DNA of 64,000 nt from Macrostomum lignano (lineage: Eukaryota). Shown piece by piece: positions 737 through 64,000 of this stretch (positions are counted from its first letter, which is position 1; each line of letters begins with the position of its first letter). Location of the stretch: positions 1-64,000 of the forward strand of contig NIVC01001573.1 in NCBI GenBank assembly GCA_002269645.1. The letters run 5' to 3'. Both the position numbers and the translations under genes were made by a program. Under the pieces are notes generated by a model, which saw only the letters and a program-made list of their open reading frames with translations, searched no databases and had not been told where the DNA came from.

Positions 737-3700
737 TCGTGACTGCAGCCGGTGTAGTTGTACGCGAGCGGGCTGATCCCCGGTCATGCTGTAGTCGCAG
801 TAGCCCAGCTGCGATGCCTGAGTGGTGGCCTCGGAATAAAAGGCCGGGGCGGCCCGAAAATCCGAGGCGTTGAACATCATGGAGCAGCGGGTGTTGCGGT
901 CCGAGCACCGGCCGTTGAAGCAGTAGGCCTTGAGGGTCAGTGGTCAACTGCGGTTCTTGAGTCAAAGGCCCATGATTCAGAGGGTCACAGATTTGTTTAC
1001 TGATTAACCATAGGGTTAAGGAATGATTGAGTCAATGGGTCATTGGATCAACAGTGAGTCAATGGGTCAATGGGTCCAATGGGTCATTGGGTCATTGGGT
1101 CATGTGGGTCAATGGGTCATTGGTCAATGGGTCAGTGGGTCATTGAGTCATTTGGTCATTGGTCCCAATATCTCCTCACCTGTCCGTTGAGGCACTCTGA
1201 TCCGTCAATCATGAAGTCATCAAATTCCGGGCACCATTCGCTGGTCCCGTTACAGTACTCCTCAAGGTCGCAGGCTCGCTTCCTTGGCCGACATACGACG
1301 CCCTGCGACTTCAGGCTGCAGGTGGTGAGGTTGCAGCACTGGCCTGAGGCGCAGGCGGCCCCGCTGGCCAATTTGCAGGTGCTGGGGTTGCAACAGGTGT
1401 TGTTGCACCACTGCGGAGCGTGAGATGAGCTATGAAATTTCATCATACACATACCCCATTCCATTATCCGATATCCCATTCGTATAATATCCCTATCCTA
1501 CGATATCCCATTCCTATAATATCCCTATCCTACAATATCTCTATCCTACAATATCCCTATCCTACAATATCCCTAACTACTAAGCAACGGCAGATGGCGC
1601 GATTTTGGAGGTGAGGTGGGTGTCAACCCTCCTCGCCTCTCATTGGCTGGCGCCCCGATCACTAGGTGATCGATACCCGTATCGATATCGGCGCTCGGCG
1701 CGCGCGCGCCGCAGGCGCGTGGCGCCAAGCGCCGTCCAGCCGCAGGCGACCCTCCCAGCCACCGGCGACCCTCCCCAGCCGCAGGCGCACCTACCGATAT
1801 GTATGCCCACCCTACCGATATGTACCCGATATGTACACCCTCCCGAGCCGCAGGCGCACCCTCCCGAGCCGTAGGCGCCCATGCCGCAGACGCCCATGCC
1901 GCAGACGCCCATGCCGCAGACGCCCATGCCGCAGGCACCCCGAGTGTACACTCTACCGAGCCGCAGGCACCCCGAGTGTACACTCTACCGAGCCGCAGGC
2001 ACCCGAGTGTACACTCTACCGATATGTACACTCTACCACTCTCCCGATATGTAGTCAACGATATTAGGCTAGTGAAAACTACTTATAGTAGGTGAAATTG
2101 AGTATATTTACATAAAAATGTAGATAAAACATATTGGTAGGTGAATAATGACGCATATTGCATATTAAAATGTACATATTGGAGCATATGAGCAGCAAAA
2201 ACACACAATGTAGGTGTATGGGCAGAAATAGACAAAGCAGGTACTGTAGGCGCTACATAGGTGGAAATACACACAGCAGGTTTACAAAGTGTACTTTCGA
2301 TACATATCGGATTAATGTATAAAGCAGGTTTACAAGGCATGCATAAGGTGTAGTTGTATAATACAGGCACGCATGTATAATCAGATTATAGGCAAACGCC
2401 CAGGTGCAACAGACGCGTAAATAATGTCACACCGACTAAAGAGTAAATATTGTCTAACCCGCAGGTGCATAAAAATTTTAAACAAAAGCGGTTCGGGGAA
2501 ATCCCAAAAGGGGGTTCACGGCCTAATGACCCGATATACTTTCAACACAATTAAACCCACAAGTGGGCTAGAAAAATGGACGTATTTCGATTGCGCTATC
2601 AGTACGCTAATCAGCGCAGCAAGTTCATGTCAGGAGTTCTACTCCAAGAGGCGGACCGCTGGGCCACAAACCGCCCCGAGGGAATAGGTGTCAAATGGGA
2701 GTTTTAACACTTGAGGGGATCCCGCTCAATGTACAGTGGAGGTGCCAAATGAGTAAGGACCCCTAAGTACAGTGCGGGCGTAAAACCATTTTCATCCCCA
2801 CGAGTCAAGGGATCCCAAGTGGGCACATAGGGGAATCCCAGGCGTGCAAAGACAGATCCTTATCTTTCACTCACTCCCGAAAGCCATACGGGCGGCTAGC
2901 GGCCCCATACACCCTCTTAGTCATTACGCGCTGGAAAGTCTTGTCCATCTCGAGGGTCCGGATTGTACAGCTAGCCTTATCGCGCCTGAACTGGGCCTGG
3001 GGCAGGCGTACAGAGCCCCGTGGCGCAGAATTTCCTGCAGCTCGTCCTCGCGCTCGGAAATCTCGGGGGTGACTCTGATGCCCTTGCACTTGAGCACCGA
3101 GTACAGCGACCTGTCGGGCTTCTCCACCACGTACCGGTAGAGCTTGGGGCCTCCCGTGGTGAACTGTACCATGCGGCAGCCAGCAGGTACCTCGTCAGTC
3201 CACTGCCCCAAACTCGAACCGCCCGGAGGCTCGTACTCGCCCGGGAGCAGCGGTATACACCCTGGGAGAGGAGGAGAATAAAGTGTTAAGGGGAGAAAGA
3301 GAGACAGAGACAGTGAAAAAATTACTTACGAATCAGTATCGGCGTAAATGACTCGGGTTCCTAGCCCTCCAGAGCCTCGTAGAGTCGCAGCCGGGCGTGG
3401 GAGGTGGTGAAAACGCCAATAGGTACATTAGCGTACTTGAACGCCCGCTCGCCAGCACCGCCAAATCGGGGCTTGTACTCGAGCATCATGAAGCTCTCCC
3501 CAATTGGCTCGCACGACTTGACCTTGATCGAGGGGTCGGTCAGGCGCTGCAGCCACGCCTCGTAGCTGTCCACAATCTCTGTGGAGGTCAGGTCGTCGCG
3601 CTGGCAGAATTTGCCCCAGAGCCTGCAGGGAAAAATAAATTTTTTTTGTAAGTAGAAAAACACGGCCCCACTGCAAGTAGAAAAAACTTACGAGTTTAGA

Positions 3701-6700
3701 AAAATCTTGGCCACAAAGCGCAAGCCAGGATTCTCCTCCACCTTTTCCAGCCGGACGCCTTCGCGCTCGAAAAAGCTGGCCATGTAGGCAGCCTTGGCGT
3801 CCTCAGCCATCCCCGGCGAACCGCTAGACTCGGCTTTGAGCTTCAAAAAAGTGTTTACATAATCTGCAAACAGGCCCGTGCGAGTCTCGGTCCAATAGGC
3901 CAGGGCATGAACTGACTGCAGCTTGTAACCCAACTGCAGGGCCTTGTGGAGCTCTGGGGTCGACCACGTGCCGCGGAGCATTCTCTCAGCGTCAGTGTGT
4001 GTACACTCGCTGCTGCACTGGGTCTCCATGCAGACGCGGCAGAGGCCGAAAACCAACTTCTTGTTAATCTTGGCGGGCAGTAGCGGGATGTGGAGATTGG
4101 TTGGCGGCAGAATCGACACCTCGGCGATGCCAAAATACCGGGCCAGCTGCAGCTCATCCAGTAGATGAGGCTCGGGGTGGTGTACCGGGTGCCCGACCGG
4201 GTACTTGTCAAACTTGTTGACAGTCGGGTAGAGCGACACCTAGGGGATAAGGATAAGATAAACTCAAACGCATGTCAACTGTGTGTGTACAAGTGTACAA
4301 ACTTACCACATCCCGATAGCGCAGCTCTACAGTCTCGGTGGCCTCGGCGTGCGGGACAAAAGCCTCGGTACGGCCGCCAAACAGGGCATCCTCCAGGCGA
4401 ATAGGCTGCTGGACTGGCGCTCCCTCGTCCTGATAGTCGTGCTCCCACAGAACACGCACATTGTATGCAGTGGAGAGCAACCGGGTGAAGCGCTCAGTCT
4501 CCTCATAAATCGCCCGCATTGGCTGGTTCTTGAGCGGGTGCAGCACGTCGCCGTTGGGGAAGCACTTGGGACAGCCATGGAAGAAGCAGCCATGAAACTG
4601 CAGCACTGTCCTGGTCTCTGGGTCGAAGCCGTCGACCTTACGGCCCATGGCGAAAGCCTCGCCGCCCGAGTCCGCTGTCCGCAACCGGCCGCCAAACTCG
4701 GTTGCATTCAAATGTGCCAGCCAGCACCGCGCCTTGTGCGACTGTACATCGGACCGGCGGGAAATCACCCCAAGAGTGTTGGGCTCCATAAACTTGGTGG
4801 TGAATACCGACATGGCCAAGCCCGCAATGGTGTTGGATTGAACAAATGCGTCCAGTCCGCAAATGTCCTTAATCAGGCGGGCATATTTCAGGCAGCCTTC
4901 CCGCAAAATTAACGTGTCCTGCAGGCAATAGTCCAGGTACTCCTTATTAAAATTAAACACCTGTCCCTCCTGCTTGGCCAGCCAGTCGGCGATGGAGTCA
5001 TGCTGCTTATTTTCTTTCCTCCATACATATCAATTGAGCAGTAGGGACCGACGTACCCCCAATTTTGAGGCTGGTTAAACACGTGCGGGAAATCTCCTTT
5101 GGTCAGTTGGGTGCCCAAACCAAGCGCCTTTGGGAATTGCGCCAGACCAATAGGGATGAAATTGAGGCTGTCCTTGAAGGTGATCTTGTCGCACTTCATA
5201 TACATTAGGCGGCTGTTCTGGAAGATCACTTGCGGCTTCTTCTTGGCCAGTCCGTTGAGTAGGGCGCCGAGCAGGAGGAATGCGTCATACGCAGAGCCAT
5301 TGTGCGCAATAGCAATTGCCCCCTGCTTGAACACACTAGTCAGCCAGCAGTAAAATGCATCGATAGAGTGCGGCCCGACAGATACAAACTCTCGCATCCC
5401 ACAGGCACAGTCATTGTGCGAGACACAGCTCGTGAAATCCAGTGCCAAATCGCGTCCCGCAATGCAATTGGCTGAGCTGTGTAGTCCCCCGCACACGCTG
5501 CAGCGGGGCCTGGGGAAGAGTTTGGGACACGCCTCGCAGGAGGTGGCAGCCGTAACCAAGTGTACCCGGTGCTGCTTGCCAGAGTCCACGTACGTCTCGA
5601 AATCATAGTAAACATACGGGGCGCTAGACTCTTTGGCTTTGGGCGGGGTGACAAAGCACTCGTGGGTGGCAGTTTCGTCGTACTGCTTGCAGACTGGGCA
5701 CTTGGCATAACCACACTGATGCTCAGGGGGCTGGCCTACTTTTAGTTCTTCTAGATAGCCACACGTGCCGCAAACGTGGACCGAATCACAGCGCGATCTG
5801 CCGCCTTATTCTTGCGCTTGTGATTTTCTAGGCACTGAGCATTATAGCAATTTAGCCCGCAATCATGGCATCTTACATATGCGCGGTTTGCCTTACAGTT
5901 GGAGCCCGGAGTCTTGCATGTACTGCAGGCATCAGCGCACTTGTGCTCGGCGTTGGCGCAGTCGTAGGCCATCTCGCACTTGGGCAGTAGTGATCAGAGC
6001 CGAAAAACGCAGGCAGCTTGGTGACCACATTAAAGTGCTGCTCGACCAGGTGCAGGTGCAGAATCTCGGTGCCAGGCAGGTTGAAGATGCACCTGTTGGC
6101 CTCCTCTGCCGTACACGCGTACACCAAAATCGCGCCCGGATGCAGCCGGTTCAGGGCACGGATCGCTTCGGGCAGTGCATCCAACCCGAAAGGACCAGCC
6201 TGCGAGACGGTTTGAAGAGTCTGTGTGGAGGGTAAAATATTTCTTTTAGTATTCCCTGATACTGTGTAAAAAATCTTATCAGAAAATATATCTTTTAGTA
6301 TTCCACGATACTGTGTAAAAATTATTATCAGAAAATTTTAGTATTCCACGACTGTGTAAAAATTCTTATCAGAAAAATACTAGAAACTTACCGTGTAGAG
6401 GCCAGCTTCGATTTGTAGCTCAGCCACCAGCTTAGTCTGCGTGGGCGAATTGGCCTTGATTGTGTGCCACACCCGCTTGGTGATGGACTTGGCCACGAAT
6501 TGCAGGTAGGCGCAGGCCACGACCAGAGCGCGCAGCAGGCATCTCTTGTCCGAGTTGGTGATGCGGACATAGTGCTTGGAGAAGGCGTGCCGCTCTTCTA
6601 GATGCTTGTTCTCGAGAGCACATCCACCTCGAGGTACCCAGGCTTTTAGCAGACGGATAGAAAAGTTGCTCGACAGTACGCTTGCGTCTGACTGCACAAT

Positions 6701-9700
6701 CTTGTCAATGTGCTTAAACAACAATTCAGCCGTCATGCGGGCTGCACGCACCGGGGGAGTGTGGGCCGCTTTGAGCATATTGTCGCTCTCGAATTTCGCG
6801 GCCATAAAGTCATCACCAGCCAAATCTTGCTTGAAAACTTCGAGCATGTCAGCAAACACCTCCCGCAAATCTTCGGTGTTGGTAATATGCACCACATACT
6901 CGACACCCTTTGCCCTAAACTTGGGCAGGTCACGCTGATTATCCAGCCGGCCGTAAAACCTGCATGGGGGAATGGGGGAGTGTGAGTCAGCTAGGGTCTG
7001 TGTGGGAAATGGGGGGCGGATAACTCACCCGGTCCGGTAACAGATTCCGGCTGTGTTGGCGGGACAAACGCGTCTGAAAAAACACAAGGAGATAAAAAAC
7101 CAGAAGAATCTGTCATTTTCCTGGCCCCAGCGTGTTTCCCCGCCCTAGCCCCAGTAATTTCTTAACAGAGTTTACTCTGCTGTCCCCGCAGCAACTCTCT
7201 GCAATTTCTTATCTGCACCCCCGCTGCAGCCTGTCGCAGCAGTCTTTGTTTACTCACCCCTGCAACTCTCTGTCGCAGCAATTTGCACCTAGCTGCAGCC
7301 TGTCTGGGTAGCGCCCTATCTGCAGCCCCAGTCTGTCCCAGCAACTCTCTGCCCCACCTGGCTGTAACTTGTCTAGCCTGCCCCAACGATTCTGCAGCAA
7401 TTTCTTATCTGCCGCAGCACCCTAGCAACTGTCTGTTTTTGCAGCAATTTCTTATCAGCACACCCCTCCCTGTCTAGACAACCCCCCCACCCCAGTCTTT
7501 GTTTACTCACCCCTGCAACTCTCTGTCGCAGCAATTTGCACCCCAGCTGCAGCCTGTCTGGACAACACCCCCCTAGCAGCAATTTCTTATCAGCACACAC
7601 CCGGCTGAAACTTGTCTAGCCCTCCCCTGCAACTCTCTGTTACAGACCCTGCCGCAGCACCCCACCCTAGCAACTCCAGTCTAGACCCCTGCAGCTGTCG
7701 CAGCAGTCTTTGTTGTTTACTCTGCGGTCCCACAGACCCTGCAGCTGCTGCTGCTGCTCAGCCCCTACCCCCACCCTAGCAACTACAGTCTAGACAGAAA
7801 TTAATTAAAACTTACCATAAAGACGTTGCCTCTTGTCAGCCAGAAAGCAGTTGCTGCGGCGCTGCGTTTAGCCATTTTGCAAACAGAGAGCGTGAGAGAG
7901 CGGAGAGAGAAGGATTTATCTCTCTACCCTGGCTCTGGGGGTCTGTATATATACTAAAAAATCTGCTCAGCTCGCCTGTTATTGGATAAATCGCCAAAAA
8001 CCAACCAAAATCATCAAAAATCACCCCAAAATCATCACCCACCCCACCCTCCACCCGGGGTATATAAGGCGCTGCACGGCTGTCAGAGAGCTCTCTGCTG
8101 CTGCTGCTGCTAAATCATGTCTTCTATCTCTCTATACGAAAACTTTGTGGCGCGGAAGCCCACATTTGAAACTGAACACAACTTGATTGAAATTCGGCGT
8201 CTCTACACCAACGAGGCCGGAGTGTGGAAGGACGGCTTCCCTGCAATCTACTTGGCCGAGCCAGAGTGGAAGAAGCTCGAAGCTGCGCGCCCTGACCTGG
8301 AGGCTGCTGCCCGCCTTCACGTGAACAAGCGGGTCCTGTTGGGCAATTTCAAGGCAGTTGAAGCTTCGCGAGGGAGGATCCGTTTGCTGCGCAATTGGCT
8401 CAATCAGGACCCAAAGTTTAATTGGCGCTACACGATCGAATTCACGCCTGAACTGTGGCGCCGGATGTTTGCCGCCCGTTTGGACAAGCTCTTCAAGCCG
8501 GCACCTGAGGCACCCCCTCCAGCCAAGCGAGTCAAGACAGACACGCCTCCGGTAGCCGGGACTGAGGTGGATGTTCTTCAGCTCATGGGTCTCAAACCCT
8601 ACCAATCTCCACCCTGGGAAAATCTGTTTAACGAGGGTTGGGACTGCTAGTTTCCTATTGGTTCGCACCGCCTCACTCGATCCGTCTATATAATTAGTGT
8701 TTCCCCCTCTCCAGAGAGTCAAACCCTATCTCAGCTCTAATACTTTACTCTCTGTTGATTCTAGCATGTCCCGTCGAGCTCTATCCAACCTCTGGGATAA
8801 TAATCGCCCGACTGAAGAGTTAACCAGCCTCGACGGGGATATCCCTGAACACATAGTTCCCCTAGGCACTGAAAACAACGGAAGTGATAATTGGGAGGCT
8901 GATCAATATCTAGCTTGGGCTATGTCCTATGATAGCGACACCGAGTCTGAAGTTTTTGACCTCCCGCTGCTGGCTATCGGCGGGGTTGTGAACGGTGCCC
9001 CTGCTGCTACTGCCTCCGATTTGACTACCGCCTCAGCCGCCCTCTTTGACGTCTCTGTTGAGGAGCTGACCACAACCGGCCCTGCCTCTGCTGCGCCCGT
9101 CTCTGCTGCTGCCGCCTCTACTACGCCCGTCTCTGCTGCTGCTTCAACTACCTCCCACCGGGCCTCAATATCATCAGCCGCTACGCTCCTTCTCTTCGAC
9201 GACGAGGACGAGGATATGTCTGAGGAGATCGCCGTGGTTCGTGAGCGCTTTCCTCGCATTGTGGCCTCATTTTTCCGCGGGGACATTGACTGGCTGAGGT
9301 CTCGGCATCCTGGCGGGCTGCCCTCCCAAGCTACCTTTGTCAGAGCCTTTAATCGGGTTCTTGATACTTTGGTTGCGAGGGGTGCCGGCCTACGGGAGGT
9401 GTTGGAGGCTGAGACTCTGCACCAGGACTGGTTGATGGGGCGCAATTCGTATGCCCCCGACTCTGAGGCGTACCTGGCCGGTCCGGGAGCGCGGCCAACT
9501 GCGTGGGATGAGCCCGTCGCATGGCCCTCCAACTGGGAGGAGCACCTTTCGTTGGTGCGCTATACAGCGTCTCTACGTCTGTGGCGGCTGGAGGACGATT
9601 TAGATTTGGTAAGATATTACATTATATACACAACTCATCTAATCATATACCTTGCATATATTCTATCTACATTGACTGTTATAATTTCCACATTGCCAGT

Positions 9701-12700
9701 CATCCGACTACTGCTTCGAGAGCGTGGAGGAAGAGGCCGCGTACGAGACAGCCCTGAGGGAGCGTATGGAGATTGACTGATAAGGGTATTTCTCTTTGTA
9801 CGCGGTTTGGGGAACCCAACACTGTACACTGGGTAGGTTAGAATGTGCGCTAGCTGGGGGCCTCTATGTGTGTATACACGGGGGTTAAAAGACCAATTCT
9901 GATAGCTCGCTCCTAGGGAGGAAATTGGCAGAGGGGCCGGCCCAAAAAACTGAAATGGGCTGGCCCCGGGCTCGAGTCCACCCACCTAAAATATGGAGGT
10001 CATTACAACCTAATGACCCGAAATACTTTCAACGCAATTGTACCTATAAGAGGGTTAGGGCGGCGGCGGCGGTGGCGAAAACGGGCGGCTAAAACCTCCC
10101 TTTTGGGATTTCCCCGAACCGCTTTTGGTTAAAATTTATGCACCTGCGGGTTAGACAATATTTACTCTTTAGTCGGTGCGACATTATTTACGCGTCTGTT
10201 GCACCTGGGCGTTTGCCTATAATCTGATTATACATGCGTGCCTGTATTATACAACTACACCTTATGCATGCCTTGTAAACCTGCTTTATACATTAATCCG
10301 ATATGTATCGAAAGTACACTTTGTAAACCTGCTGTGTGTATTTCCACCTATGTAGCGCCTACAGTACCTGCTTTGTCTATTTCTGCCCATACACCTACAT
10401 TGTGTGTTTTTGCTGCTCATATGCTCCAATATGTACATTTTAATATGCAATATGCGTCATTATTCACCTACCAATATGTTTTATCTACATTTTTATGTAA
10501 ATATACTCAATTTCACCTACTATAAGTAGTTTTCACTAGCCTAATATCGTTGACTACATATCGGGAGAGTGGTAGAGTGTACATATCGGTAGAGTGTACA
10601 CTCGGGGTGCCTGCGGCTCGGTAGAGTGTACACTCGGGGTGCCTGCGGCTCGGTAGAGTGTACACTCGGGGTGCCTGCGGCATGGGCGTCTGCGGCATGG
10701 GCGTCTGCGGCATGGGCGTCTGCGGCATGGGCGCCTACGGCTCGGGAGGGTGCGCCTGCGGCTCGGGAGGGTGTACATATCGGGGTACATATCGGTAGGG
10801 TGGGCATACATATCGGTAGGTGCGCCTGCGGCTGGGGAGGGTCGCCGGTGGCTGGGGAGGGTCGCCTGCGGCTGGACGGCGCTTGGCGCCACGCGCCTGC
10901 GGCGCGCGCGCGCCGAGCGCCGATATCGATACGGGTATCGATCACCTAGTGATCGGGGCGCCAGCCAATGAGAGGCGAGGAGGGTTGACACCCACCTCAC
11001 CTCCAAAATCGCGCCATCTGCCGTTGCTTAGTAGTTCCCTATCCTACAATATCCCTATCCTACAATATCTTTATCCTACAATATCCCAATCCTACAATAT
11101 CCCTATCCTACAATATCCCTATCCTACAATATCCCTATCCTACAATATCTTTATCCTACAACATCTCTATCCTACAATATCCCTATCCTACAATATCCCT
11201 ATCCTACAGTATCCCTACCCTACAATATCCCTACCTACCCTTTAATATTCCTACCCGACAATATAACATACCTTACCCTACAATATCCTTATACACCCTG
11301 ATTCCCACCCGCTGCACCTGAGGCGGTCCGCAGTCGCAGTCCTCCCCGGGCTCGACAATCCGGTTGCCGCACGCGCTCCTGGTGGCGGCCAGGTTCGCCA
11401 CCGAAGGCGGGTCGGACATGCAGTATCCGAGCCCGTTGTCCACGCTGAAGTCCTGGTAGCGGAACACGGAGCAGTTGGAGAATCGCATCGGGTTAATCCT
11501 GGGATTTGATTGGACAGGCGACACGCGAGTTAAATCTGCGTTCGTGTACTGAATCGTGTGCTGGGTCAAGGGGTGCTGGGTCAAAGGAGTGCTGGGTCAA
11601 GGGGTGCTGGGTCAAGGGGTTCTGGGTCAAAAGAGTGCTGGGTCAAGGGGTGCTGGGTCAAGAGTTGCTGGGTCAAGGGGTGCTGGGTCAAGGAGTGCTG
11701 GGTCAAGGGTCGCTGTGTCAAGGGGTGCTGGGTCAAGGGGTGCTGGGTCAAGGGGTGCTGGGTCAAGGGGTGCTGGGTCAAGGGTCGCTAGGTCAATAAT
11801 CAAAGATAAAAATGTTGGGTCAAGGGGTCGCTGGGTCAATAATCCTAGATAAAGGTGCTGGTTCAATAATCCTAGATGAAGATGCTGGGTCAAGGGGTCG
11901 CTAGGTCAATAATCCTAGATGAAGATGCTGGGTCAAGGGGTCGCTAGGTCAAGGGGTCGCTGGATCAATAATCCTAGATGAAGATGCTGGGTCAAGGGGT
12001 CGCTAGGTCAAGGGGTCGCTGGATCAATAATCCTAGATGAAGATGCTGGGTCAAGGGGCTGCTGGGTCAATAATCCTAGATGAAGATGCTGGGTCAAGGG
12101 GCTGCTGGGTCAATAATCCTAGATGAAGATGCTGGGTCAAGGGGCTGCTGGGTCAATAATCCTAGATGAAGATGCTGGGTCAGGATGTTGAATCGCAGGG
12201 CTACTCATGACTGCGGCTCACTCGGTGCCCACAGCGGCCATGATGCAGCCCTGTCTGTCCGGGCAGTGGCAGCCTCTTTCGTCCTCGTCGTGGTTCATGC
12301 CGAGGTTGTGCCCGAGTTCGTGGGCCACCGTGATGGCCACCCCGATTGCGTTGGCGTCCCGGTCCTGCGAGGAGGGAGTTTGGCCGTTTTGATTTCGGTT
12401 TTCAAAATATTTAACAGTTTCATGAGATATCTATGGGATTTGTCTTATATCTATGAGACTTGCCTATATGCATTGAGACTCGGGAAGCTATGAGATTCGC
12501 CTAAAAACGAGAATGTCTCACCGAATTGACTCCGCCACCGAAAGCGGAGCTGCACAGCTTGCCCAGGTGCGCCAAGCCGACATCCGAGCCGGTCATTTTC
12601 AGTCCGCTGAAGTTTTTTAGCGTTTAAACAAATTTTCTTGATGAAGGCTGGGTGTCATCTTTAGGATACAATTGACAGAATGGGACAGTATTGAGCATTT

Positions 12701-58979: not shown

Positions 58980-61900
58980 CTGGCTACGGCTACGGATATG
59001 GATACGGAAAGGCTATGGATACGGATAGGCTACGGATATGGATACGGATAGGCTACGGATATGGATACGGATAGGCTACGGGTATGGATAGGCTTACGGG
59101 GATATGGATAGGCTACGGATATGGATGTGGATAGGCTACGGATATGGATACGGATAGGCTACGGATATGGATGCGGATAGGCTACAGATATGGATACGAA
59201 TAGGCTACGGATATGGATACGGATAGGCTACAGATATTGATACGGATAGGCTACGGATATGGATAGGCTACGGATACGGATAGGCTACGGATACGGATAG
59301 GCTACGGATATGGATAGGCTACGGATACGGATAGGCTACGGATATGGATGCGGATAGGCTACGGATATGGATACGGATAGGCTACGGATATGGATGCGGA
59401 TAGGCTACAGATATGGATACGGATAGGCTACGGATATGGATACGGATAGGCTACGGATATGGATGCGGATAGGCTACGGATATGGATGCGGATAGGCTAC
59501 GGATATGGATACGGATAGGCTACGGATATGGATGCGGATAGGCTACGGATATGGATACGGATAGGCTACGGATATGGATAGGCTACGGGGATACGGATAG
59601 GCTACGGGTATGGATACGGATAGGCTACGGATATGGATGTGGATAGGCTACGGATATGGATACGGATAGGCTACGGATACGGATAGGCTACGGATATGGA
59701 TGCGGATAGGCTACGGATATGGATGTGGATAGGCTACGGATATGGATACGGATAGGCTACGGATATGGATGCGGATAGGCTACGGATATGGATGTGGATA
59801 GGCTACGGATATGGATACGGATAGGCTACGGATATGGATGCGGATAGGCTACGGATATGGATACGGATAGGCTACGGATATGGATGCGGATAGGCTACGG
59901 ATATGGATGCGGATAGGCTACGGATATGGCTGCGGATAGGCTACAGATATAGATGCGGATAGGCTACGGATATGGATACGGATAGGCTACGGGGATACGG
60001 ATAGGCTACGGGTATGGATAGGCTACGGGGATACGGATAGGCTACGGGTATGGATACGGATAGGCTACGGATATGGATGTGGATAGGCTACGGATATGGA
60101 TGCGGATAGGCTACGGATATGGATACGGATAGGCTACGGATATGGATGTGGATAGGCTACGGATATGGATACGGATAGGCTACGGATACGGATAGGCTAC
60201 GGATATGGATGCGGATAGGCTACGGATATGGATGCGGATAGGCTACGGATATGGATGCGGATAGGCTACGGATATGGATGCGGATAGGCTACGGATATGG
60301 ATGCGGATAGGCTACGGATATGGATACGGATAGGCTACGGATATGGATGCGGATAGGCTACGGATATGGATGCGGATAGGCTACAGATATAGATGCGGAT
60401 AGGCTACGGATATGGATGCGGATAGGCTACGGATATGGATACGGATAGGCTACGGATATGGATACGGATAGGCTACGGATATGGATGCGGATAGGCTACG
60501 GATATGGATGCGGATAGGCTACGGATATGGATACGGATAGGCTACGGATATGGATGCGGATAGGCTACGGATATGGATGCGGATAGGCTACGGATATGGA
60601 TGCGGATAGGCTACAGATATAGATGCGGATAGGCTACGGATATGGATGCGGATAGGCTACGGATATGGATGCGGATAGGCTACAGATATGGATATGGATA
60701 GGCTACGGATATGGATACGGATAGGCTACAGATATGGATGCGGATAGGCTACGGATATGGATGCGGATAGGCTACGGATATGGATGCGGATAGGCTACGG
60801 ATATGGATACGGATAGGCTACGGGGATACGGATAGGCTACGGGTATGGATAGGCTACGGGGATACGGATAGGCTACGGGTATGGATACGGATAGGCTACG
60901 GATATGGATGTGGATAGGCTACGGATATGGATACGGATAGGCTACGGATACGGATAGGCTACGGATATGGATAGGCTACGGGTATGGATACGGATAGGCT
61001 ACGGGTATGGATACGGATAGGCTACGGATATGGATACGGATAGGCTACGGATATGGATAGGCTACGGGGATACGGATAGGCTACGGATATGGATAGGCTA
61101 CGGGGATACGGATAGGCTACGGATATGGATAGGCTACGGGGATACGGATAGGCTACGGGTATGGATAGGCTACGGGGATACGGATAGGCTACGGATATGG
61201 ATACGGATAGGCTACGGATATGGATAGGCTACGGGGATACGGATAGGCTACGGGTATGGATAGGCTACGGGGATACGGATAGGCTACGGATATGGATACG
61301 GATAGGCTACGGGGATACGGATAGGCTACGGGTATGGATAGGCTACGGGGATACGGATAGGCTACGGGTATGGATTTGGATAGGCTACGGGTATGGATAC
61401 GGATAGGCTACAGATATGGATTTGGATAGGCTACGGGTATGGATACGGATAGGCTACAGATATGGATGCGGATAGGCTACAGATATGGATACGGATAGGC
61501 TACGGATATGGATAGGCTACGGGGATACGGATAGGCTACGGGTATGGATACGGATAGGCTACAGATATGGATTTGGATAGGCAACGGGTATGGATACGGA
61601 TAGGCTACAGATATGGATACGGATAGGCTACAGATATGGATGCGGATAGGCTACAGATATGGATACGGATAGGCTACAGATATGGATGCGGATAGGCTAC
61701 AGATATGGATGCGGATAGGCTACGGATATGGATGCGGATAGGCTACAGATATGGATGCGGATAGGCTACGGATATGGATGCGGATAGGCTACGGATATGG
61801 ATGCGGATAGGCTACAGATATGGATGCGGATAGGCTACAGATATGGATGCGGATAGGCTACGGATATGGATGCGGATAGGCTACAGATATGGATGCGGAT

Positions 61901-64000
61901 AGGCTACGGATATGGATGCGGATAGGCTACGGATATGGATGCGGATAGGCTACAGATATGGATGCGGATAGGCTACGGATATGGATGCGGATAGGCAACG
62001 GGTATGGATGCGGATAGGCTACAGATATGGATGCGGATAGGCTACAGATATGGATACGGATAGGCAACGGGTATGGATACGGATAGGCTACAGATATGGA
62101 TACGGATAGGCTACAGATATGGATACGGATAGGCTACGGATATGGATGCGGATAGGCTACAGATATGGATGCGGATAGGCTACAGATATGGATGCGGATA
62201 GGCTACGGATATGGATGCGGATAGGCTACAGATATGGATGCGGATAGGCTACGGATATGGATACGGATAGGCTACGGATATGGATGCGGATAGGCTACGG
62301 ATATGGATACGGATAGGCTACGGATATGGATGCGGATAGGCTACAGATATGGATGCGGATAGGCTACAGATATGGATGCGGATAGGCTACAGATATGGAT
62401 GCGGATAGGCTACGGATATGGATGCGGATAGGCTACGGATATGGATGCGGATAGGCTACGGATATGGATGCGGATAGGCTACGGATATGGATGCGGATAG
62501 GCTACGGATATGGATGCGGATAGGCTACGGATATGGATACGGATAGGCTACGGGGATACGGATAGGCTACGGGTATGGATAGGCTACGGGGATACGGATA
62601 GGCTACGGGTATGGATACGGATAGGCTACGGATATGGATGTGGATAGGCTACGGATATGGATACGGATAGGCTACGGATACGGATAGGCTACGGATATGG
62701 ATACGGATAGGCTACAGATATGGATACGGATAGGCTACAGATATGGATACGGATAGGCTACGGATATGGATGCGGATAGGCTACAGATATGGATGCGGAT
62801 AGGCTACAGATATGGATGCGGATAGGCTACGGATATGGATGCGGATAGGCTACAGATATGGATGCGGATAGGCTACGGATATGGATGCGGATAGGCTACG
62901 GATATGGATGCGGATAGGCTACGGATATGGATACGGATAGGCTACAGATATGGATGCGGATAGGCTACGGATATGGATGCGGATAGGCTACGGATATGGA
63001 TGCGGATAGGCTACGGATATGGATGCGGATAGGCTACGGATATGGATACGGATAGGCTACGGATATGGATGCGGATAGGCTACGGATATGGATACGGATA
63101 GGCTACGGGGATACGGATAGGCTACAGGTATGGATAGGCTACGGGGATACGGATAGGCTACGGGTATGGATACGGATAGGCTACGGATATGGATGTGGAT
63201 AGGCTACGGATATGGATACGGATAGGCTACGGATACGGATAGGCTACGGATATGGATAGGCTACGGGGATACGGATAGGCTACAGATATGGATGCGGATA
63301 GGCTACAGATATGGATGCGGATAGGCTACAGATATGGATGCGGATAGGCTACGGATATGGATGCGGATAGGCTACGGATATGGATGCGGATAGGCTACGG
63401 ATATGGATGCGGATAGGCTACGGATATGGATACGGATAGGCTACGGATATGGATGCGGATAGGCTACGGATATGGATACGGATAGGCTACGGGGATACGG
63501 ATAGGCTACGGGTATGGATAGGCTACGGGGATACGGATAGGCTACGGTATGGATACGGATAGGCTACGGATATGGATGTGGATAGGCTACGGATATGGAT
63601 ACGGATAGGCTACGGATACGGATAGGCTACGGATATGGATAGGCTACGGGGATACGGATAGGCTACAGATATGGATTTAGATAGGCTACGGGTATGGATA
63701 CGGATAGGCTACAGATATGGATGCGGATAGGCTACAGATATGGATACGGATAGGCTACGGATATGGATAGGCTACGGGGATACGGATAGGCTACGGGTAT
63801 GGATACGGATAGGCTACGGGTATGGATACGGATAGGCTACAGATATGGATGCGGATAGGCTACAGATATGGATGCGGATAGGCTACAGATATGGATGCGG
63901 ATAGGCTACGGATATGGATGCGGATAGGCTACAGATATGGATTTGGATAGGCAACGGGTATGGATACGGATAGGCTACAGATATGGATGCGGATAGGCTA
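58980..64000. repeat. 23-bp satellite (GGCTACGGATATGGATGCGGATA), over 5 kb, runs off the window
   Basis: Built of GGCTAC/GGATAT/GGATGC/GGATA sub-repeats. Confidence 0.97.

Follow-up and report, generated by a model that had tools for sequence, protein, structure and literature searches.

Mavericks, or Polintons, are replicated by a family B DNA polymerase of the protein-primed kind (pPolB) that primes at the tips of their terminal inverted repeats (TIRs); an rve integrase makes a 6-bp target-site duplication (TSD), and an ATPase, a protease and capsid proteins build particles. A retroviral-like integrase within the same element belongs to the definition of a Maverick given in the accessible part of PMC5499653, and a class of pPolB bearing a VSR domain is described in that of bioRxiv 2023.08.22.554363. 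Here we analyzed a stretch of 64,000 bp from Macrostomum lignano (assembly GCA_002269645.1, contig NIVC01001573.1, positions 1 to 64,000; hereafter the window), which contains a TIR element of 9,460 bp at positions 1576–11035. Taken alone, this element falls outside the Maverick definition; together with a second type of element in the same genome, it makes up the full Maverick gene set. We consider it likely that the window element is the polymerase segment (A) of a Maverick that exists as two separately inserted pieces, that the other piece (B) is the integrase, capsid, protease and ATPase segment, and that each complements the other in trans.

A preliminary description of the window had reported TIRs of about 940 bp, a TCCCTA duplication and three interior genes (pPolB, a PC4-like gene and an orphan), with no integrase, ATPase, protease or capsid gene among them. 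Alignment gave a left TIR of 941 bp (1576–2516, plus strand) and a right TIR at 10093–11035 (minus strand), which are 99.2% identical over 945 columns with 2 substitutions. TCCCTA does flank both ends (1570–1575 and 11036–11041, plus strand), the left copy lying within a minisatellite of the host intron, but the window copy alone is no proof of a TSD because TCCCTA recurs in this minisatellite, four times in the 150 bp to the left and nine times in the 250 bp to the right. Better evidence came from the family, A-I. Its 29-bp end marker had 212 exact matches in the genome and 0 for the reversed control. The first 100 of these matches were listed. Of 60 stretches retrieved, 23 were two-ended pol copies, all 23 flanked by a matching 6-bp TSD, 16 were the two-ended palindromes described below, and the remainder were chimeric, short, nested or single-ended. 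Twenty-two of the pol copies lie at sites other than that of the window element and the remaining one is the window's own site again, some copies in this single M. lignano assembly being duplicates of one site (C1573/C1640). The copies measure 8.8–10.5 kb (median 9.47 kb; n = 24 with the window), and with 56 A-I pol loci in the genome, the window element is not a single internally deleted copy. A sister family, A-II (about 9.5 kb, tips ACTACGTA), has pol DNA 65% alike that of A-I and matching TSDs in 7 of 8 cases. No PC4-like or ORF3 homologue was detected in the 4 kb beside the A-II pol (L141–L142, L137–L140). When 26 A loci were searched by tblastn with a panel of 18 proteins whose positive control worked, Maverick integrase, ATPase, capsid, protease and penton were found at none of them. 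A cryptic integrase, one of the two findings that the preliminary description had named as fatal to its own proposal, was likewise detected neither by Pfam nor by this panel.

The integrase, double jelly-roll capsid, packaging ATPase and cysteine protease expected in the same element as the polymerase were found on B. Among capsid neighbourhoods we met a 10.4-kb TIR element that carries integrase, capsid, protease and ATPase genes and no polymerase, and with its integrase as query (114 of 1600 candidates were scored) two families were recovered: B-I, whose ends matched 65 times and whose 23 end pairs have a median length of 10.52 kb, and B-II, with 61 matches to its ends and a median of 10.15 kb over 24 pairs. 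Matching TSDs were present in 8 of 10 B-I and 9 of 13 B-II copies. The B-I genes lie on one strand in the order Fic, four unknown open reading frames (ORFs) together with a core-like ORF, integrase, penton-like, pVII-like, major capsid protein (MCP), protease and ATPase; the names core, penton and pVII are ones we assume from position and from likeness to the full Maverick L435, rather than from library matches. The integrase matched rve (E 1.9e-9) and has a trace of a chromodomain. The MCP is 30–35% identical to F54H12.2-like proteins, and its model (pLDDT 73.7) matches Vp54 of PBCV-1 (E 1e-15), the predicted fold being a double jelly-roll. The ATPase and protease are 38% and 27% alike those of a full Maverick contig; PF04665 (Pox_A32) had no match genome-wide and the B-I protease none in PDB, and the assignment of both putative enzymes follows likeness to L435 and motifs. 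A polymerase was found at 0 of 21 B loci with a 17-frame panel that covered both pol classes and whose positive control worked. Of the three options raised by the preliminary description, the segmented element is the one that fits, elements with matching tips and with integrase and capsid genes being present.

Several other features of B were recorded. The Fic-domain gene of B-I (L195:1511-2290; E 6.6e-14), which is under selection (pN/pS 0.22), had no match in the B-II reference copy. Three further MCPs (P0001–P0003), 80–81% like that of B-I, branch apart from both B-I and B-II and may belong either to further lineages or to other host species. In three B-ended copies (G000:C135:106312-115586, C356:258144-265773 and C996:304975-315186) the 6-mers on the two sides are not repeated directly but are each other's reverse complement, which would reflect either mirror duplication or an assembly artefact.

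What ties B to A is the tip. All four families have ACTAC…GTAGT tips. We compared 102 A-I/palindrome, 33 B-I, 36 B-II and 33 A-II ends, with duplicates merged by flank; ACTACTAT and ACTACATA tips were taken in, and 3 further B-I ends were set aside because they lack an ACTAC tip. The first 7 bases of B-I ends were common to A-I/palindrome ends in 33 of 33 cases and the first 20 in 24 of 33, and 14 bases were common to B-II and A-II in 28 of 36 B-II ends. Whatever the length of prefix compared, B-I paired with A-I and B-II with A-II, which have the ACTACGTA tips in common, and there was no cross-lineage match at 14, 20 or 27 bases. In the window, the terminal block of 31 bp (1576–1606, plus strand) consists of ACTACTA, a variable part at positions 10–27 and ATTTT, is common to A-I, B-I and the palindromic elements described below, and is likely to be both replication origin and integrase site. 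The Maverick functions are divided between two elements with only this tip in common, which is the part that both enzymes would need; mutual complementation is the simplest account. Positions 10–27 (window 1585–1602) are hypervariable block-wise in the tips of all families and usually identical at both ends of a copy; the same set of variants occurs in A and B of one lineage, and several resemble short hairpins.

A and B nevertheless occur as separate insertions in the one assembly, with no joined copy observed. At least 56 B-type integrase loci and 96 A-type pol loci have 3 contigs in common, at spacings of 44, 169 and 467 kb; no B-type integrase lay closer than 44 kb to an A-type pol among the scored loci, and no fused copy was present in 16 long or clustered regions. 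Two features of a segmented virus, a common terminal sequence and complementary genes, are both found.

The preliminary description had also offered the element as a satellite of a full Maverick, an option that is not supported: full Mavericks of the four families for which the ends were read start with AGTAG and use a polymerase of another class than A. These Mavericks bear on a second explanation, in which dependence runs one way only. A would then be plasmid-like and use the B integrase, B would be copied by some other polymerase (of a full Maverick, of the host, or encoded by an unrecognized ORF of its own), and common descent would be unneeded. The genome does hold several full Mavericks with pPolB, B has unknown ORFs, and our trees did not show congruence of pol and capsid. 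However, the tips of B follow those of its A partner, unlike the AGTAG tips of full Mavericks, and protein-primed polymerases are origin-specific, as established for phi29 and adenovirus. The unknown ORFs of B, moreover, span only 117–269 amino acids and lack a Walker A motif, the sole one in B being that of the ATPase (4 of 4 copies), and the longest stretch not covered by ORFs is at most 745 bp. We consider one-way dependence improbable.

Comparison of the two pairs indicated that their genes are maintained. Between the pairs, the proportions of synonymous (pS) and nonsynonymous (pN) differences were 0.68–0.72 and 0.21–0.25 for pol, 0.68–0.71 and 0.06–0.09 for the MCP, 0.57–0.62 and 0.12–0.15 for the integrase, and 0.65 and 0.08 for the ATPase. 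These values indicate purifying selection on the genes of both A and B, and because synonymous divergence between the pairs is near saturation, the split is old. Within lineage I, pN/pS was 0.09 and 0.16 for pol exons, 0.10 for the MCP, 0.20 for the protease, 0.38 for the integrase, 0.43 for ORF2 and 0.37 for ORF3, values that were pooled against one reference copy and are not independent. Differences between the TIRs of a copy amounted to 0–0.8% in A-I, 0.15–3.2% in B-I, 0.9–6.1% in B-II (7 of 8 measured) and 2.8–4.0% in A-II (2 of 3). Four pol introns sit at identical places in A-I and A-II, which form one fully supported clade in the pol tree (FastTree, 47 of the available rows); this clade falls within a group holding single-piece metagenomic Mavericks, apart from the full Mavericks of the host. 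B-I and B-II likewise form one fully supported clade, with the integrase (100/100) and, in a quick tree, with the MCP. Metagenome pols related to A share a contig with integrase and capsid genes (L343, L365, L398). Scanning metagenome and viral contigs with single proteins gave no match. Two AT-rich metagenome contigs of 7.7–8.0 kb (L336, L338) have TIRs and a related pPolB with no integrase or capsid match, and may be either linear plasmids or other polymerase-only segments.

These data weigh on the possibility that A and B are deletion derivatives mobilized by a full-length parent that the assembly lacks or that occurs solely as free virus. Non-autonomous Polintons are known, the assembly may be incomplete, and the searches had limits (114 of 1600 integrase candidates scored; the first 100 of 212 A-I/palindrome end matches listed). 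All 134 pol-exon candidates were scored, however, and comprised only A-I, A-II, the decayed locus C234 and weak fragments; passengers would not hold pN far below pS across a near-saturated divergence, and do so in two parallel pairs; and the long TIRs of A and B differ. A common parent of this kind seems to us unlikely.

The A-I tips also bound a class of whole-element palindromes with no recognized gene (L041–L043, L054–L074, L084; for example G000:C436:114944-124196). They measure 5.7–9.4 kb (median 8.8 kb, 14 measured), their arms differ by 0–0.5%, and they carry pieces of the B-I TIR. Among the stretches retrieved, 16 were two-ended, 15 of them with a matching 6-bp TSD, and an arm marker had 63 exact matches genome-wide. 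One chimera, L061 (G000:C428:214927-223625), joins an A-I left part to a palindrome arm and has its own 6-bp TSD, which points to recombination preceding insertion.

The palindromes speak to the idea that A is autonomous, with ORF3 or the extra domain of pol acting as a cryptic integrase. ORF3, the orphan gene (8766–9780, plus strand; one intron, 9609–9699), has homologues in the host species only, and one automatic UniRef label calls it 'DDE_Tnp_1_7 domain-containing'. Its six UniRef labels are mutually discordant and come with no Pfam match, though, and Pfam, PHROGs and Atlas gave no match to ORF3 itself. Five of 23 A-I copies tested lack ORF3 and still have their own TSDs, A-II shows no homologue of it in the 4 kb beside pol, and the palindromes, which have no genes, are inserted with this 6-bp TSD too. 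An autonomous A is very hard to credit.

We favor mutual complementation of A and B, and propose the following cycle. Transcription and splicing of A would yield pPolB, and this would copy any linear molecule bearing the 31-bp tip of its lineage at its ends, whether A, B or a gene-less palindrome. The B integrase would insert all three alike, with a 6-bp duplication, and the B capsid module would package the segments singly, which would account for the size of about 9–10.5 kb in every class. Separate packaging, suggested by this common size and by selection on the capsid genes of an element that lacks pol, has in our judgment about an even chance of being correct. The same balance applies to an infectious multipartite double-stranded DNA (dsDNA) polintovirus of a flatworm, whose pol and capsid segments, both about 10 kb long, would occupy particles of their own and integrate independently, with at least two old lineages distinct in their tips and with defective palindromes of this size alongside.

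Several points weigh against the two-segment reading. Gene content, tips, TSDs, the splicing of A, selection and the two parallel pairs are observed; trans-complementation, free linear forms, particles and the fission of one ancestor are what we infer. The likeness of A-I and B-I is confined to the terminal ~31 bp, blastn finding nothing else and the long TIRs differing, and past the tip the pairing is unclean, a 23-bp subterminal motif of B-II matching A-I and not A-II. The separation counts come from hit lists in which 114 of 1600 integrase candidates were scored. The trees leave deep nodes open and drew long-branch warnings, that of the MCP is a quick one, and they do not demonstrate a single ancestor of pol and capsid. 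Finally, four B ORFs are without assigned function.

The genes of the window element add details beyond the preliminary description, namely pol introns, non-standard ACTACT tips and a broken pol frame. The pPolB gene with its VSR-like insert (2871–7875, minus strand) matched PF03175 on four frames (best E 4.9e-13), and a profile search with the A pol matched phi29 pol with E 8e-8 and Vsr with E 0.012. Spliced public contigs define seven exons and six GT–AG introns (7074–7815, ~6960–7028, 6221–6391, 4240–4306, 3623–3691 and ~3262–3329). Pol introns were skipped in contigs of 4 of 4 public runs from 4 studies, none of which is recorded as RNA, so that their RNA nature is guessed from the joints alone. 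Joints 3621/3691, 4237/4305, ~6220/6392 and 6950/7027 were present in all four runs, and joint 7073/7816, the gap 3245–3329 and the spliced ORF3 intron in two each. The frame is broken at ~3020, 3360, 5010, 5800, 5980 and 6110–6135, which points to assembly error or decay of the window copy because some or all run contigs differ there. A predicted divergent promoter region (7946–8067) has TATA-like boxes for pol (~7946–7953) and ORF2 (~8060–8067). ORF2 (8117–8650, plus strand; 177 amino acids), the PC4-like gene, gave only E 0.19 in Pfam and an Atlas lead of 0.86; it is 29% identical over 114 amino acids (E 3e-10) to a PC4-family ORF of a full Maverick of the same genome and likely binds single-stranded DNA (ssDNA), while its single-sequence fold (pLDDT 36) was too poor to use. 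The element lies inside an intron of an ADAM gene, with a disintegrin exon at 1156–1413 (minus strand; PF00200, E 1e-17) and a second ADAM-like exon, read from the sequence and without a Pfam match, at 11273–11488. Host introns are rich in other minisatellites, and a long 23-bp tandem array occupies 58985–64000.

At least three families of full AGTAG Mavericks of 16–20 kb are present in the genome (G000:C67, C2232, C1293, C175:252847, C211:350291, C114), some of them nested inside A-I or palindromic copies, and a genome search with PF21738 found other Maverick families only. Several candidates were set aside. L065, in which integrase ORFs lie between A-I ends, is a short element holding two nested copies of Gypsy with a 5-bp TSD of their own, and the excess length of the long A and B copies C4, C2210, C1313, C2285, C2286, C106 and C271 comes from inserts or duplications. 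C56 (18.4 kb, B-I ends) held no A or B genes that we could find. L435, taken up as a pol-less element, carries a pPolB of the other class; an apparent third pol group (54%) turned out to be A-II with frameshifts; and C234 is a decayed element whose capsid is of another type.

If the stable two-segment form is real, it would mean genome segmentation within the double jelly-roll dsDNA lineage. With a laboratory flatworm as host, young A-I copies (TIR differences of 0–0.8%) and a spliced pol, the question of animal Maverick particles becomes testable, protected DNA being expected as species of 9.5 and 10.5 kb. Polinton screens that, like the one in PMC11414722, require pol and integrase to lie no more than 20 kb apart would overlook such pairs. 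We found no segmented or bipartite Maverick and no Macrostomum Mavericks in the literature; Repbase and most subscription papers were outside its scope, so prior annotation is possible.

Palindromic A-I elements behave like non-autonomous Polintons and defective snap-back genomes. Those are passengers, whereas A and B keep selected, complementary genes. The closest match is a Maverick with VSR-bearing pPolB2 and an F54H12.2-like capsid, with which A and B share a VSR-like pPolB, the rve integrase, the double jelly-roll MCP, the ATPase, the protease, a PC4-like gene, TIRs and the 6-bp TSD; B also keeps the order core, integrase, penton, pVII-like, MCP, protease of L435. Vertebrate Mavericks, according to the accessible part of PMC8097293, are single elements of 12.7–24.6 kb, intronless when intact, with usual tips AGTAGT…ACTACT; here there are two insertions of 9.5 and 10.5 kb, the A pol has six introns, and the tips are ACTAC…GTAGT, in the window element ACTACT…AGTAGT, the reverse of the usual motif. 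The same part of that source reports a tip motif starting with AC for swamp eel. Like A, transpovirons and eukaryotic linear plasmids are small linear TIR elements without capsid genes (accessible parts of PMC5499653 and PMC4405056). A differs from them in being nuclear, spliced, integrated with a TSD and partnered by a capsid segment, and Pfam found no SF1 helicase or RNA polymerase among 10 interior frames of the window element. Bidnaviruses and the Drosophila Vesanto virus have segmented genomes in which one segment encodes pPolB and the segments have terminal repeats in common, a layout that A and B resemble (accessible parts of PMC8363768 and bioRxiv 2024.03.25.586562), and bidnavirus pPolB derives from polintoviruses (accessible part of PMC4405056). 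These viruses, however, have ssDNA, a parvovirus-type capsid and NS1, to which Pfam scans of the B ORFs gave no similar match, whereas A and B have a double jelly-roll capsid, an integrase and segments that are each inserted in the genome. If the two-segment form is real, A and B would offer a present-day counterpart of the path leading from polintons to bidnaviruses with segmented genomes and to pol-only plasmids.

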